Shown here piece after piece: positions 37,601 through 47,897 of a stretch of 64,000 bases of DNA (within the stretch, counting starts at the first letter, position 1; each line of letters begins with the position of its first letter). A model generated the notes under the pieces. The model saw only the letters and a list, made by a program, of their open reading frames with translations, was not told where the DNA came from and searched no databases. This DNA comes from an uncultured Actinomycetes bacterium. GTDB lineage: Bacteria > Actinomycetota > UBA4738 > JBBDTT01. The stretch spans positions 1,408,001 through 1,472,000 of the forward strand of contig CAVUMN010000004.1 of the NCBI GenBank assembly GCA_963742735.1. Reading direction: 5' to 3'. A program made the translations under genes and the position numbers.

Positions 37601-37788
37601 GCGGCGAGGCGATCCGGCCGCGGGCCGCGTTCGGCTGGGCGATGGCCTTCGAGCCCTCGGAGCCCGCGGCGTTCGTGGCTCGCTTCGACGGACAGTGGGC
37701 CCGCCGCCTCGAGCTGCTGCTGCTCACGTTGCTGTGGGGCGCCGCCCTGTTCATCACCCGGCGCCTGCCGAGGGCGCCTCGCACGTGA
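34690..37788 (+). CDS. large GT2 glycosyltransferase with multi-TM C-terminal region
   Basis: VDNGSRDGS, LHDD, DQGQYD and YFEDMD; many TMs; conserved position after whiB. Confidence 0.88.
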   Translation: MAKTKTTSGSTASRTRKAPSVLVILVVKDGEAWVRGTLAALSKQRYPRLGIIAVDNGSRDGSAQILRTMLGEPRVVSLPTNRGFPAAVAEALRRAGNAAEADYLLMLHDDAVLSPGSLARMVETAERIEGVGVVGPKVVDWDDPTILREVGLSTDRFGYPFSPLEEEELDQGQYDRARDVLYVSSSAMLVSREALKRVGLPDERYGSYFEDMDFGWRSRLAGFRVVMTPRAVVRHRQASFRDERPGSAAAKRSRYYTERASLASLLKNYSVLTLLWVLPLYAAFGFVRLLLFLLERRFAEATQILAAWGWNLAHLPGTVRRRVRAQAVRAVPDREIRRFMAPAGIRIRRWLQAGAAVLFGRGQMEEEDIIERPPLRQRAGSYALSHPVGVAWGVFALVALFAYRTVWGADPLTGGALGELPAGSRGFLTAFVSGWRDTALGGAQSASPAVGMWWVGSFLSFGSAELFQKIALMALPPLAGASAYRATFLIGGQRGPAVLSGATFALSSGVLYAFSQGRIDLLVVMALTPWMAHRLWSFFDRAVPAHPLRWLVGGGLGLALGAAFHPGIVLSAALCLGVGVLVRGSDGSIWRGLRYGLGAGAVAAALLFPTVIEYLGAPGALADGSGQADVFELLRGSLGPSPGSWVLGAFLPLAAVVALAFVDRRFIRWAARASLAALTGTGLAWAGAAGYLPPVVSDPAVFVALALFCYAFVLGLALSSMVLDVERHAFGARQLAIGLIGALVTFGLIGQTFETIRGAWAIGEDKRPAAWPVVSEDGSEGPFRVLWLGRPLGAEFPAPGGLPQGILQDGRSLRFAVTGRDGSSAVDLARPGTGPGYDYLRAALAEAMSGRTRHLGAMLAPLGVRYLVAGQGDLPKGAGSRIDAQVDLDLVQSAGGLVIFRNARAVPPPAVISDDEWAILSAGGLDDAARALNPRATLLAGGETEYRGRADGGDVVYLSAQAASWVLEPEGGEAIRPRAAFGWAMAFEPSEPAAFVARFDGQWARRLELLLLTLLWGAALFITRRLPRAPRT

Positions 37789-39164
37789 ACGTCCGCGCAC
37801 GACTGCTGCTTTCGGGGATCGTGGCGATCCTCGTCGTGGGCGCGGGCGCGGTGCTCCAGACGCGGGTCGGCCCCGATGAGTCCGCGGTACCCCAGCCCGT
37901 GTCCGCGGAGACGGGCGCGTGGTTCTGTCCCCACGGCGGCCTGTGGAAGACGTGGGTCACGGTGGGCAACCCCGGGGTGGAGACGGCCACGGTGCGGCTG
38001 ACGACCTACGGGGGAGAGGGCGTGGCGGGACGGGAGGACTTCGACCTCGCCGGGGGCGAGCAGCGCTACGTGCTGGTGCCCACCCCGAACGCCGGCACCG
38101 GCACCGTGGTGGAGTTCTTCGGGGCCGAGGTGGCGGCGGGCTGGATCTCGGAGGGCGACGGCGGGGTGGCCGCTGAGTCCTGCCGGGCCTCCGCCGGCCG
38201 CACCTGGTACGTCGCGGACGGCATCACCGAGCTCACCCAGGGCCAGCTGGAGCGGACGTCCTGGCTGGTGGTGATGAACCCGTTCGCGGTGGACGCCGCG
38301 TTCGACGTGACCCTGCTCACGGCCGAGGGCGCGCCCACGCGGGTCGGCGCGCTGCGCGGGTACGTCCTGAAGGCCCACCGCTCGATCGCGTTCAACCTCA
38401 ACCGCTACCTGCTGGGAGAGACGTCCATCGCCGCGAGCGTGAACGCCTCCCTCGGGTCGGTGTCGGTTTCCCAGCTCGGCCGGACCGAGAGCGTGGGCAT
38501 CCGCGCGGTCACGGCCGTCCCGCACCCGTCCCGGCGATGGGTGTTTCCCGCCGCTCTCGGTGCCGACGACTCGGCCCTGGTCGTCGCCGACCCGTTGGAG
38601 CAGAGCGCTGCGTTCAGCGTCCGCCAGCAGGGCCTCGAGGAGCAGCGGCCGGTGGACGACCTCACCGAGGCCAGCCTGCGAGGGCTGTCCGTGCAGACCT
38701 TCGAGGTGGCGACGGACCCGGGACCGTCGGGGATCGTGGTCGACGCCAACGCGGACGTGCCGGTGGTCGCGGCCCGGCGGACCGACGGCCACCGAGGCGA
38801 CGTGGGGGCGGTCTCGGGCGCCTCGTCCGTGGCCGCCGCGTGGGTGGTCCCGCCCACGGTCCCACCCACCGGGGGAGGCCAGCAGCGGCTGCTGCTCGAG
38901 AACCCCGGGCTGCAGGACATCACGGTGAGCGTCCGGGTGTTCGGCGACGCCGACCAGGACCTGGGGACGGTCGAGGTCCCCGCGGGCCGGACCGTGGCGG
39001 TCGGGCTGGACGAATCCTCGGACGGCGCTCCGGCGTGGGCCTACGTCGAGTCCCAGGATGGAACGTTCGTGGCCGGATCCGCGTCTTTGTCTCTGGAGGG
39101 TGCGTACGCGCTCTCGATCGGCCTGCCACTCGGGGGCGAGCGAGCGGTGATCCCGGAGTCGTGA
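37785..39164 (+). CDS. DUF5719-like secreted protein
   Basis: GTGA overlap, signal/TM, WFCP and repeated NP beta domains; usual neighbour of the GT2. Confidence 0.7.
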   Translation: MNVRARLLLSGIVAILVVGAGAVLQTRVGPDESAVPQPVSAETGAWFCPHGGLWKTWVTVGNPGVETATVRLTTYGGEGVAGREDFDLAGGEQRYVLVPTPNAGTGTVVEFFGAEVAAGWISEGDGGVAAESCRASAGRTWYVADGITELTQGQLERTSWLVVMNPFAVDAAFDVTLLTAEGAPTRVGALRGYVLKAHRSIAFNLNRYLLGETSIAASVNASLGSVSVSQLGRTESVGIRAVTAVPHPSRRWVFPAALGADDSALVVADPLEQSAAFSVRQQGLEEQRPVDDLTEASLRGLSVQTFEVATDPGPSGIVVDANADVPVVAARRTDGHRGDVGAVSGASSVAAAWVVPPTVPPTGGGQQRLLLENPGLQDITVSVRVFGDADQDLGTVEVPAGRTVAVGLDESSDGAPAWAYVESQDGTFVAGSASLSLEGAYALSIGLPLGGERAVIPES

Positions 39165-39167
39165 CCT

Positions 39168-40244
39168 ATGATTCGATCGAGACAGATGAGGCGAGGCAGA
39201 CACCGTAGGAACGGGCAACGCTCGCTGAGGATCGTCGTCCTGACGCTCCTCGTCCTCGGGCTGGCCTTCTCCGGGACCGCCTACGCCGGATACCGCTACG
39301 ACCTCGCCCGCGCCGACCGGATCCTTCCCGGCGTGTCCATCGACGGGGTGGACGTGGGCTGGCTCACTCGCGACGAGGCGATCTCCGCGCTCCGCAGCCG
39401 GGTGGAGGACCGCCTGGGCCGGGAGATCGAGGTGCAGGCGGGCGGCGCAACCCTGACGGTCACCCCCGGCGACCTGGGCTCCGCCGCCGACGTGGCGGCC
39501 GCGGTGGACGACGCGCTGGACGTCTCCCACTCCTACTCCTGGGTCAGCCGGGTGCTGGCCCGCCTGTGGAACCGCCCGGTCGGTCGCGAGGTGCCGATCG
39601 CCTACCAGCACGACGAGGCGAGCGTCGCCGCGTGGCTGGAGCGGGTCGCGGGCGAGCGCAACGTCTCCCCGAGGAGCGCCTCGGTCGACTGGATCGACGA
39701 CCACGTCGCCATCACCCGGTCCCGGCAGGGGCGGGCCCTGAAGCGTGCCCTGGCGGCCGAGGCCGTCCTGAAGGCGCTCGACGAGAGCGCCTCGGCCTTC
39801 ACGCTGCCGTTCAAGCGGCTGGCGCCGGCGGTGACCGAGGAGACGCTCGGCCACACCATCGTGGTGCGCACCGGGGTCAACAAGCTGATGCTGTTCGACG
39901 GGCTGAAGATGGTGAAGGAGTACGCCGTGGCCACCGGGACGCCGGGGTATCCCACCCCGCACGGACACTTCGAGATCATCAACAAACGCATGAACCCGAC
40001 CTGGGTGAACCCCGCGCCGAACGGATGGGGCGCCAGCCTGCCGGCCTCGATCGGGCCCGGTCCGGGGAACCCCCTGGGCACGCGCGCGCTGGATCTGGAC
40101 GCCCCCGGCATCCGCATCCACGGGACCTACGCGGACGACTCGATCGGGTCATGGGCCTCCCACGGCTGCATCCGCATGCACATCCCGGAGAGCGAGGAGC
40201 TGTTCGGGATCGTGGACGTGGGCACGTCCGTCGTCATCGTCTAG
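39168..40244 (+). CDS. L,D-transpeptidase with N-terminal peptidoglycan-binding (PG_binding_4-like) region
   Basis: NPLG, IRIHGT and SHGCIRM YkuD motif; start could be 39186. Confidence 0.9.
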   Translation: MIRSRQMRRGRHRRNGQRSLRIVVLTLLVLGLAFSGTAYAGYRYDLARADRILPGVSIDGVDVGWLTRDEAISALRSRVEDRLGREIEVQAGGATLTVTPGDLGSAADVAAAVDDALDVSHSYSWVSRVLARLWNRPVGREVPIAYQHDEASVAAWLERVAGERNVSPRSASVDWIDDHVAITRSRQGRALKRALAAEAVLKALDESASAFTLPFKRLAPAVTEETLGHTIVVRTGVNKLMLFDGLKMVKEYAVATGTPGYPTPHGHFEIINKRMNPTWVNPAPNGWGASLPASIGPGPGNPLGTRALDLDAPGIRIHGTYADDSIGSWASHGCIRMHIPESEELFGIVDVGTSVVIV

Positions 40245-40305
40245 ACCCCTCCGGGCCCCCACCCCGGATTTGGCACTCTTTCTTGCCCGGAACGGCCCTC
40301 TCGGC

Positions 40306-40334
40306 TTGCATGTTCTGCGTGGCAGCGGTAGTCT
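40306..40334 (+). promoter_or_regulatory. sigma-A-type promoter TTGCAT-N17-TAGTCT
   Basis: Near-consensus hexamers; predicted TSS about 40341 coincides with the first base of a hairpin. Confidence 0.65.
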
Positions 40335-40340
40335 GGTGGG

Positions 40341-40437
40341 GTACCTCGCAGAGACCGGAAGGGTTCGCCCGGAAGGCCACTGCGGGGTACATCTCTATAT
40401 CGGAAGGCGCGGGAAACCCGCGTCTTCCTGCGGTTTT
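40341..40437 (+). ncRNA. candidate orphan small RNA (hairpin with symmetric GGAA/GGAA loop plus terminator-like hairpin)
   Basis: 11-bp stem 40341-40351/40380-40390, UUCG apical loop, second 12-bp stem 40402-40428 followed by TTTT. Confidence 0.5.
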
Positions 40438-40484
40438 AGGTTCAGGGGGCCTCGAGGGCGGACCCCCGGATCCTCGTTCACGTG

Positions 40485-40509
40485 CTTAGGTAACGATCCG
40501 TTACACAAG
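40485..40509. promoter_or_regulatory. imperfect palindrome CTTAGGTAAC-N5-GTTACACAAG
   Basis: Same half-site recurs at 40805-40826. Confidence 0.55.
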
Positions 40510-40560
40510 ACCCTCGCGGGGAACTTGAGAACGACATGAGTGTGATTTAGGGTATCGGCC

Positions 40561-40809
40561 GTGCGAACCTGTTCGAAGAGCACCTGCAGCGAGCCGTCGG
40601 TGGTCACGCTCGTGATGCGCTACGAGCGGCGGCAGGTAGCCATGGTCGCCCGGCTCCCCGAGTTCGACCCCAACCACCTGGAGCTGTGTGCCGACCACGC
40701 CGCCCGGCTGGTCCCGCCCATCGGCTGGTCCGTCCAGGACGAGCGCACGGGGGTGCGGTCCGCCGATCCCCTCGCCGAGCGCGGATTCGAGGAGTCGCTG
40801 CAGTCTTAG
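40561..40809 (+). CDS. DUF3499-family small protein
   Basis: RTCSKSTC...LCADHAARLVPPIGW; TAGGGT -10 seven nt before GTG. Confidence 0.8.
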   Translation: MRTCSKSTCSEPSVVTLVMRYERRQVAMVARLPEFDPNHLELCADHAARLVPPIGWSVQDERTGVRSADPLAERGFEESLQS

Positions 40810-40826
40810 GTACGCTGTTACCTAAG
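40805..40826. promoter_or_regulatory. palindrome CTTAGGTA-N6-TACCTAAG over a TACGCT -10 and the start codon of the next gene
   Basis: Perfect 8-bp inverted repeat. Confidence 0.6.
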
Positions 40827-41116
40827 TGGGACTCTCCAAGGATCTGATCCGCGAGGTACGGCACCTCGATGAGTACGACCTCCGCCGGCTGACGATCTTC
40901 ATCCGTGGGCTCCTAACGGCGCGCGGGGTCGACGAGCCCGCCGTCGAGCAGCTGATCGAACGCCCCGCCAACGTCACCTACCGGCAGGAGCGGGTCCGGT
41001 GCGGGCGCGAGGGATGCTCCCGATGTCCGCACGGCCCGTACTGGTACGCGTACTGGCGAGAGGGCGGGCGCCTGCGCTCCCGGTACATCGGCAAGGAGAT
41101 GCCCTCCCGCGCGTAG
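40826..41116 (+). CDS. small Zn-finger basic protein (DUF6788-like)
   Basis: CGREGCSRCPHGPYWYAYWREGGRLRSRYIGK. Confidence 0.75.
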   Translation: MGLSKDLIREVRHLDEYDLRRLTIFIRGLLTARGVDEPAVEQLIERPANVTYRQERVRCGREGCSRCPHGPYWYAYWREGGRLRSRYIGKEMPSRA

Positions 41117-41212
41117 TCAGGGAGGACTATCCCGGTCTGGCCCGTTGAGCAACTCCGAAACCATCCCGGCGAGCCATGTGCCAAACCGTCCCGAAATGCC
41201 GAGAACCGAACC

Positions 41213-47680: not shown

Positions 47681-47897
47681 GGTGCCGTCTGGGTCTGTGG
47701 TTGCTCGGGGATGAGGGCCATGTTCGCGTCCCCGATAGTCGATGCCAGTCGCAGGCGAAACGACCCACGTAAGGTGACCCTTGGTCGCCGAGCATGGTGC
47801 GACTTAGATGTAAGTCCTGCGCCGGGAGGCGCCGCGAACGCGACGCATTCCCTGCAGGCGGGTGTGGGGTCAAAGACCAGGTCAGCCGGACGACACC
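47681..47897 (+). ncRNA. raiA motif RNA
   Basis: Conserved blocks GGTCTGTGGTTG, AGTCGATGCCAGTCGCAGGCGAAACGACCCACGTAAG, GAGCATGGTGCG, CTTAGA.GTAAGTCCTGC, GCAGGCG.GTGTGGGGTCAAAGACCAGGTCA; closing stem; comF-raiA location; TAGACT -10 at 47667. Confidence 0.92.

Follow-up and report, generated by a model that had tools for sequence, protein, structure and literature searches.

The window analysed here is a 64,000-nt stretch of the genome of an uncultured Actinomycetes bacterium. The element of interest lies on the + strand between a gene encoding a YkuD-type L,D-transpeptidase (ykuD; 39168-40244) and a gene encoding a DUF3499 protein (40561-40809, start codon GTG at 40561). The latter is followed on the same strand by a gene encoding a 96-aa protein (40826-41116) and, beyond it, by genes for a 65-aa zinc ribbon, a phosphomannomutase (PMM) and a Trm112-like protein. 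The corynebacterial DUF3499 gene is given in one account as the first gene of a mannose-6-phosphate synthesis operon (PMC7775120).

The 96-aa protein matched nothing in Pfam or NCBIfam, and the ESM Atlas assigns it to DUF6788. It is 60-72% identical across at least three classes and carries an invariant tail, CPHGPYWYAYWRE..G..SRY.G. Its predicted structure (mean pLDDT 76.4) is composed of two helices and a three-stranded sheet. A Foldseek search of the PDB with this model gave no match at E ≤ 0.001; the weak rows include some dsRBDs at E >1.5, which do not constitute evidence of relatedness. The DUF6788-like protein was rejected as an obligatory partner of the RNA described below, as it was found in 0/80 members of family f5, against 16/80 for the RNA. 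Upstream of ykuD there is a 489-aa ORF (37695-39164) that belongs to no Pfam or NCBIfam family. Weak relatives of this ORF occupy the same position in many loci of the window's order, and are also found upstream of the RNA in a third class, in which ykuD is missing. Two copies of an inverted repeat were noted downstream of the element: CTTAGGTAAC-GATCC-GTTACACAAG (40485-40509), located upstream of the DUF3499 promoter, and CTTAGGTA-CGCTGT-TACCTAAG (40805-40826), which spans the DUF3499 stop codon and the start of the 96-aa gene. The repeat CTTRGGTA...TACCYAAG is also present in relatives (loci L003 and L006-L008, and L063, L065, L066 and L067 of the class of genome G217) and looks like either the operator of a regulator or an RNA hairpin.

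The initial annotation had described at this site a promoter, a stem with its loops, a linker, a second hairpin with a T run, and three copies of CGGAAGG, and all of these parts were confirmed to the base. The RNA promoter, P1, consists of the -35 hexamer TTGCAT (40306-40311) and the -10 hexamer TAGTCT (40329-40334), separated by a 17-nt spacer. The -10 hexamer ends 6 nt 5′ of the stem, and GGTGGG fills the interval up to the first base of the stem, G40341. The conserved core of the RNA is hairpin 1 (40341-40390, 50 nt, + strand), supported by RNAfold, covariance model (CM) matches and covariation. Its outer stem of 11 bp, including one U-G pair, is formed by the 5′ arm GTACCTCGCAG (40341-40351) and the 3′ arm CTGCGGGGTAC (40380-40390), which enclose, in this order, AGA, CC, GGAA, GGG, UUCG, CCC, GGAA, GG and CCA. 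Above the outer stem lie an A/A mismatch (A40352/A40379), an inner helix (G40353-C40378, C40355-G40376 and C40356-G40375), a GGAA/GGAA internal loop (40357-40360 with 40371-40374) and a GGG/CCC helix (40361-40363 with 40368-40370) capped by UUCG (40364-40367). Directly 3′ of hairpin 1 there is a U-rich tract, ATCTCTATAT (also written AUCUCUAUAU; 40391-40400, + strand), and then hairpin 2 (40402-40428, + strand), whose arms GGAAGGCGCGGG and CCCGCGTCTTCC form 12 bp with one G-U pair around an AAA loop (ΔG = -22.1 kcal/mol). Hairpin 2 and the tail that follows it up to position 40437, TGCGGTTTT (also given as UGCGGUUUU), make up a GC-rich stem-loop with a T run, and are thus predicted to be an intrinsic terminator. 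The copies of CGGAAGG start at 40356, 40370 and 40401.

RNAfold predicts both hairpins (-51.8 kcal/mol, z = -3.79; 1 of 200 shuffled sequences folded as well). The minus strand folds too (z = -4.69), so folding energy alone does not distinguish the strands. A generic promoter scan of positions 39800-41200 reported no site; it missed P1 because TTGCAT/TAGTCT fails the 9-of-12 rule. A terminator scan selected a shorter, 5-bp register of the second hairpin (40418-40433) followed by TTTT. It is therefore conservation, and not the fold or scans of the single sequence, that marks the element as more than a product of chance.

In the first comparison, a BLASTN search of 40 relatives, hairpin 1 was found in seven. 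A covariance model, R1, was built from these seven sequences and that of the window (8 sequences, alignment A2). The CM searches were carried out on samples of 150 genomes per group with strict filters. R1 matched 44/151 genomes of the window's order, each with one sense match (41.7-88.1 bits); read in antisense, these places reached at most 32 bits. Genome G085 has, on a different contig, a further match that is weak (28.1 bits). The RNA of the window itself scores 70.6 bits with R1 and 69.5 bits with model R3. Model R2 matched 39/151 genomes of the window's class, all 39 of them from the window's order, and 19/151 genomes of a phylum sample. With R3 the RNA was detected in 89/113 genomes of a second class, that of G217 (50/61 among the high-quality genomes), in 17/21 genomes of the third class, that of G252, and in 23/151 genomes of the phylum sample, in which this model adds divergent members from families f40, f37 and f14. 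Carrier genomes have one copy, rarely two. The near-universal presence in the second class suggests a housekeeping role. Within genus g14 the RNA is patchy, with carriers amounting to 9/13 genomes in the R1 search and 14/19 in the R2 search, and since this is so even within one genus, the RNA is dispensable. In two other genera, g91 and g166, carriers number 1/9 (one weak match of 33.6 bits) and 0/5. In two genomes, G440 and G234, the sequence of the outer stem is wholly different, and the fold, the loop core and the promoter are kept.

A pattern scan of one genome per species matched 98 stretches, and 68 of the 80 that were checked were confirmed by the model. All 68 come from metagenome-assembled genomes (MAGs) labelled Actinomycetota, Actinobacteria or Actinomycetes, apart from one labelled "uncultured bacterium". 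The 12 matches that failed, which come from other phyla or are due to chance, were rejected; they belong to archaea, Myxococcota-type and Bacteroidota-type bacteria, Treponema, and one record each of Mycobacterium and Propionibacterium. One of them (L128) had a 25.7-bit match and was dropped as weak. The only pattern match on viral contigs scored 16.4 bits with broken pairs and was attributed to chance. Several of the genome tallies include genomes flagged as unpublished, and alignments A1-A8 contain unpublished rows (G014, G027, G031, G039, G049, G052, G073, G187, G231 and G324). The majority of the alignment rows and of the tallied genomes are public, and we expect the conclusions to stand without the unpublished ones.

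The predicted fold is supported by covariation. Alignment A8 comprises 91 distinct sequences with 1523 pair cells, of which 98.2% are paired; compensatory (both-side) changes are seen at 11 of the 17 pairs, in 185 cells. For the outer stem these counts lean toward structure, because all the alignments follow the model and 68 loci were collected with a pattern that fixed parts of this stem. None of 500 shuffles reached any of these values, and when the pairing partners were slid by 1-3 columns only 37-56% of cells were paired. The smaller sets gave similar pictures, with 97.8% of cells paired and 4 compensatory pairs among 8 sequences, and 97.4% and 9 pairs among 30. About 134 of the 1523 pair cells (summed from the per-pair table) are G-U or U-G; these favour the + strand, since wobble pairs become A-C mismatches on the other strand. 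Together with the asymmetric interior of the hairpin and the gap between sense (37-88 bits) and antisense (≤32.5 bits) CM scores, they bear out the + strand RNA that had been suggested on the basis of the window alone. The model matches are 55 to 66 nt long, and the region is not coding, because the length differences are not multiples of 3. Two small overlapping ORFs, of 89 aa on the + strand (40270-40539) and 52 aa on the - strand (40234-40392), were rejected on account of the compensatory changes and the non-triplet length differences.

Several features of the interior of hairpin 1 are conserved. The A/A mismatch (at times A/G) follows the outer stem, and the internal loop is symmetric, ranging from 3x3 to 5x5. 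The loop nucleotides that adjoin the apical helix, three per strand, fall mainly into two classes, GAA/GGA in 31/91 sequences, including the window, and GUA/GAA in 27/91. The middle positions of the loop (columns 24 and 43) covary, the combinations being A-G (47 sequences), U-A (32), U-G (5) and A-A (2). The exchange between GAA/GGA and GUA/GAA offers a natural experiment on mutually replaceable non-canonical modules. The apical cap is a GNRA tetraloop in 61 sequences, YNCG in 26 and another sequence in 4; the UUCG of the window is the only YNCG cap within the GAA/GGA class. Because stable tetraloops are freely exchanged, the cap is not a contact site, and selection acts on the internal loop and the geometry of the helix. 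The outer stem has the form GUAC...GUAC in at least 84/91 sequences. This conservation could result from a constraint on the bases transcribed first, or from a site in the DNA, instead of a protein contact.

All 97 non-identical loci for which 50 nt or more of upstream DNA was available have a promoter of the P1 type, in which TTGnnn and TAnnnT are 17 nt (36 loci) or 18 nt (61 loci) apart and the -10 hexamer stops 5-7 nt short of the first stem G. The commonest form of the -35 hexamer is TTGCGC. In the -10 profile, T has a frequency of 0.82 at -12, A of 0.90 at -11 and T of 0.85 at -7. Further upstream, at -57 to -49, there is an A-rich tract with an AT content of up to 0.77, compared with about 0.33 nearby. 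P1 therefore agrees with a sigma-70-type promoter, which has TTGnnn and TAnnnT elements 16-19 nt apart and at a fixed position, and since its position is fixed relative to the stem, transcription should start at the base of the helix.

At the other end, at least four T residues occur in the 9 nt after hairpin 1 in 96/96 loci. In 18 of these loci there are 7-8 T, and in such lineages hairpin 1 itself is terminator-like. A second terminator-like hairpin, varying in sequence across lineages, lies within 130 nt in 58/96 loci. In the window the first tract, AUCUCUAUA, is weak and hairpin 2 looks like the real end, so the RNA is predicted to be about 97 nt long; in the lineages with long U runs it would be about 55-60 nt.

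No known RNA family accounts for the element. A search of the whole window with the 4227 models of Rfam 15 at gathering thresholds yielded only the raiA motif RNA at 47684-47894, 7 kb downstream (132.9 bits against a gathering score of 101.3). Positions 40200-40600, searched at E up to 10, gave no match to Rfam 15, and neither did seven related loci. The initial proposal of an orphan + strand small RNA that has a promoter and a terminator of its own is supported. SRP RNA and 6C RNA, two of the identities denied in that proposal, were rejected here as well. The locus has no match to the SRP RNA model RF00169, even at E up to 10, and the SRP RNA of this genome is encoded elsewhere (G000:C4:496058-496157, 78.5 bits). 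6C RNA consists of two hairpins with C-rich loops; the apical loops here are UUCG and AAA, and there was no Rfam match, be it to 6C RNA or to any other known actinobacterial small RNA. A search with R2 over the 23S/5S rRNA region of the genome, with filters off, gave nothing significant: the best match (11.5 bits, E = 0.16) lies about 115 nt into the 23S rRNA and covers only the apical GGGG-NNA-CCC part, and 5S rRNA gave nothing. By this search, the RNA is no recognisable copy of an rRNA hairpin from the same genome. The 23S rRNA match of this genome (G000:C3:787534-791446, locus L172, outside the window) spans 3913 nt, against 2925 positions in the model, so this gene carries an insert of about 1 kb, e.g. 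an intervening sequence or intron.

Candidate protein partners were sought in the genome (G000), which is 89% complete. CsrA, L7Ae and TROVE/Ro family proteins were not found in it; in the control search, CsrA was present in 3 and L7Ae in 7 of 14 reference genomes. In so far as an 89%-complete genome allows, a Ro/Y-RNA system was rejected on this ground. In a kink-turn, one strand has a 3-nt bulge that adjoins tandem G-A pairs, and L7Ae-family proteins bind it. This identity was also rejected, as the loop is symmetric and L7Ae was not found in the 89%-complete genome.

We consider it very probable that the element represents a real, independently promoted family of structured RNAs. The arrangement of the neighbouring genes bears on whether it also serves as a leader of the DUF3499 operon. 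In 30 of 30 loci fetched from the window's order, ykuD, the RNA, and the DUF3499, zinc-ribbon and PMM genes follow one another on one strand, with the RNA 60-150 nt after the ykuD stop codon; tblastn with the window's proteins identified YkuD in 30 of these loci, DUF3499 in 28, the 96-aa protein in 24, the zinc ribbon in 30 and PMM in 29. The third class has lost the upstream ykuD and keeps the downstream genes in 7/7 complete loci; G248 and G440 also keep the downstream gene context, including, in G440, the zinc-ribbon and PMM genes. This constant synteny in the order and the third class is the main point in favour of a role in cis, in which transcripts from P1 would read into the DUF3499, zinc-ribbon and PMM genes, and hairpin 1, together with hairpin 2 where there is one, would be a conditional terminator tuned by a protein or a small ligand at the internal loop. 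The U-rich tract that always follows hairpin 1 is consistent with such a device, and aptamers of hairpin type are known in which a conserved internal loop forms part of a terminator. However, in 36/47 non-identical loci the DUF3499 gene has a promoter-like sequence of its own (TTGnnn, 16/17 nt, TAnnnT) ending 6-9 nt before the start codon; in the window this is TTGAGA-17-TAGGGT (40525-40530 and 40548-40553), which ends 7 nt before GTG 40561, and the DUF3499 mRNA would therefore be leaderless. Close relatives possess the operon without the RNA: in G005, G016 and G020, all members of family f5 like many carriers and two of them (G016 and G020) of the carrier-rich genus g14, the ykuD stop codon leads straight to the DUF3499 promoter, and CM searches of these loci with filters off found nothing above 6.1 bits. 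Promoter, hairpin and U tract thus make up one discrete cassette, which a genome has as a whole or lacks. There are also copies outside any untranslated region. Some genomes of the class of G217 have a second copy in unrelated surroundings, beside genes for a subtilase and the ribonucleotide reductase small chain, or beside a trypsin-like gene; one such copy lies 3′ of the subtilase gene, facing the ribonucleotide-reductase gene, and another 3′ of the trypsin-like gene. At locus L055 a copy has no co-directional downstream gene, and at L061 (G245) the RNA, again with a promoter of its own and with a U7 tail, is found on the strand opposite to ykuD and DUF3499, between which it lies. Moreover, the 11-bp GC-rich outer stem is too stable to switch, and no conserved alternative antiterminator pairing was found. 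The promoter of DUF3499, the close relatives without the cassette, and the extra and inverted copies together make the RNA independent of the DUF3499 gene, and the attenuator of the downstream Zn-finger genes that had been offered as an alternative in the initial annotation is unlikely, as is a riboswitch. Two side observations concern these regions. A TCACA-N5-TGTGA palindrome is present between the hexamers of the DUF3499 promoter in many loci and may be the site of a repressor. The sharp contrast between loci without the cassette and loci with it (L169-L171 versus L039-L049) points to a unit of about 110 bp that has been lost or gained repeatedly.

For an RNA acting in trans, other modes of action have to be weighed. 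Pairing of the CUCC-containing 5′ arm or of the U-rich tail with Shine-Dalgarno or other sites in mRNAs would find suitable sequences, since the 5′ arm has CUCC or CCUC, the 3′ arm and loop have GGAG and GGAAGG, and the U-rich tail is conserved. We regard it as quite unlikely, as the candidate seeds sit within a stem (97.8% paired), no single-stranded stretch other than the U tract is conserved, and the outer stem is fully replaced in G440 and G234 with the fold kept, so that structure, and not the sequence of a seed, is under selection. It is extremely unlikely that the RNA is a CsrB-like sponge which titrates a GGA-binding protein by means of its CGGAAGG motifs, as first surmised: the window has three exact copies, but none of the GGA triplets is in an apical loop, as they belong to the internal loop and a stem, the loop is GUA/GAA in 27/91 relatives, and the third copy is an arm of a lineage-specific terminator. 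Only the two copies of GGA in the strands of the internal loop are conserved, many relatives having GUA/GAA in their place, and the sponge finds no support, because CsrA, which the control search detected in 3/14 reference genomes, was not found in this 89%-complete genome. The locus might also have no RNA-specific function at all, being a terminator or insulator of ykuD with a fortuitous promoter, or a palindromic DNA operator. The arms do form an inverted repeat in the DNA, the minus strand folds well, and the element follows the ykuD stop codon closely (60-150 nt) in the order; nevertheless this is very unlikely in view of the asymmetric and conserved internal loop with covarying non-Watson-Crick positions, the tolerance of wobble pairs on one strand only, the large sense-to-antisense score gap, the promoter present in 97/97 loci and the copies away from ykuD. 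Two more specific versions of protein binding, taken together, are very improbable as well. VapC/PIN-kind toxins cut the sarcin-ricin loop in actinobacteria, and a free, strongly transcribed minihelix that displays a purine module of the sarcin-ricin/loop-E type beside a stable tetraloop might be an rRNA-like decoy for a protein whose usual site on the ribosome is such a module, for instance a toxin of this kind, a translational GTPase or a ribosomal protein. In the other version, the RNA would form an RNP with the neighbouring proteins (DUF3499, the DUF6788-like protein and the 65-aa ribbon), tying them to GDP-mannose and cell-envelope synthesis. Either would be a new regulatory principle for Actinomycetota.

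The reading that we prefer, with a probability of about one half for the statement as a whole, is that of an independent small RNA that acts in trans through protein binding. Recognition by a protein is favoured because the structure is selected, the stem is replaceable, the purine loop is invariant and there is no conserved single-stranded seed. According to this model, transcription from a sigma-70-type promoter with an UP-like tract would start at G40341, where the hairpin begins, or at a neighbouring base, giving a blunt-ended and very stable hairpin. The transcript would be about 55 nt long if it ends in the U-rich tract, and about 97 nt if, as is more likely here, the second terminator stops it near 40437. 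Hairpin 1 would be the functional part, in which two covarying helices and the A/A mismatch hold a purine-rich internal loop whose form in other lineages (GUA/GAA) matches a bulged-G or loop-E module in sequence, and which any stable tetraloop could cap. The surface presented to the protein would consist of the internal loop and the conserved end of the helix, and the RNA would act neither by base pairing nor as a leader.

Irrespective of its mode of action, this is a well-supported new family of structured RNAs with a defined promoter, fold and strand. It is carried by more than 150 genomes, in classes of Actinomycetota that are known only from MAGs and whose non-coding RNAs have hardly been studied. 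Since close relatives differ sharply in having the cassette or not, they provide a basis for finding its partner by phylogenetic profiling.

Compared with known systems, the RNA resembles the CsrB/RsmZ sponges in its small size, its repeated GGA motifs and the possession of a separate promoter and terminator. It differs from them in that the GGA motifs are not apical, that the two conserved ones are replaceable, and that CsrA was not found in the 89%-complete genome. With the small SRP RNA (4.5S, RF00169) it shares the form of one long irregular hairpin with a purine-rich symmetric loop near a short GNRA-capped helix, but it has no RF00169 match and its cap may also be YNCG. The bulged-G module (loop E or sarcin-ricin type) has the consensus 5′-AGUA-3′/5′-GAA-3′, set between Watson-Crick helices. 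The GUA/GAA loop of 27/91 family members, usually preceded by A, is similar to it in sequence, and is oriented toward its nearby tetraloop-capped helix in the same way as the module of the ribosomal sarcin-ricin hairpin. In contrast, the GGAA/GGAA loop of the window belongs to the GAA/GGA class (31/91), the tetraloop is three base pairs away from the loop, the hairpin extends for about 15 more pairs, and the CM recognised nothing above 11.5 bits (E = 0.16) in the rRNA operon of the same genome. Further counterparts are the orphan hairpin-type motif RNAs of Rfam, such as raiA, which were likewise found through intergenic conservation and covariation and are restricted to particular lineages. 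The present RNA is much smaller than raiA and has no Rfam model. In the literature searched and in Rfam 15, on which the claim of novelty rests, nothing describes it. The family is new and belongs to a known kind, the orphan structured small RNAs, among which it stands out by an unusually clear conserved promoter placed exactly at the end of the helix.
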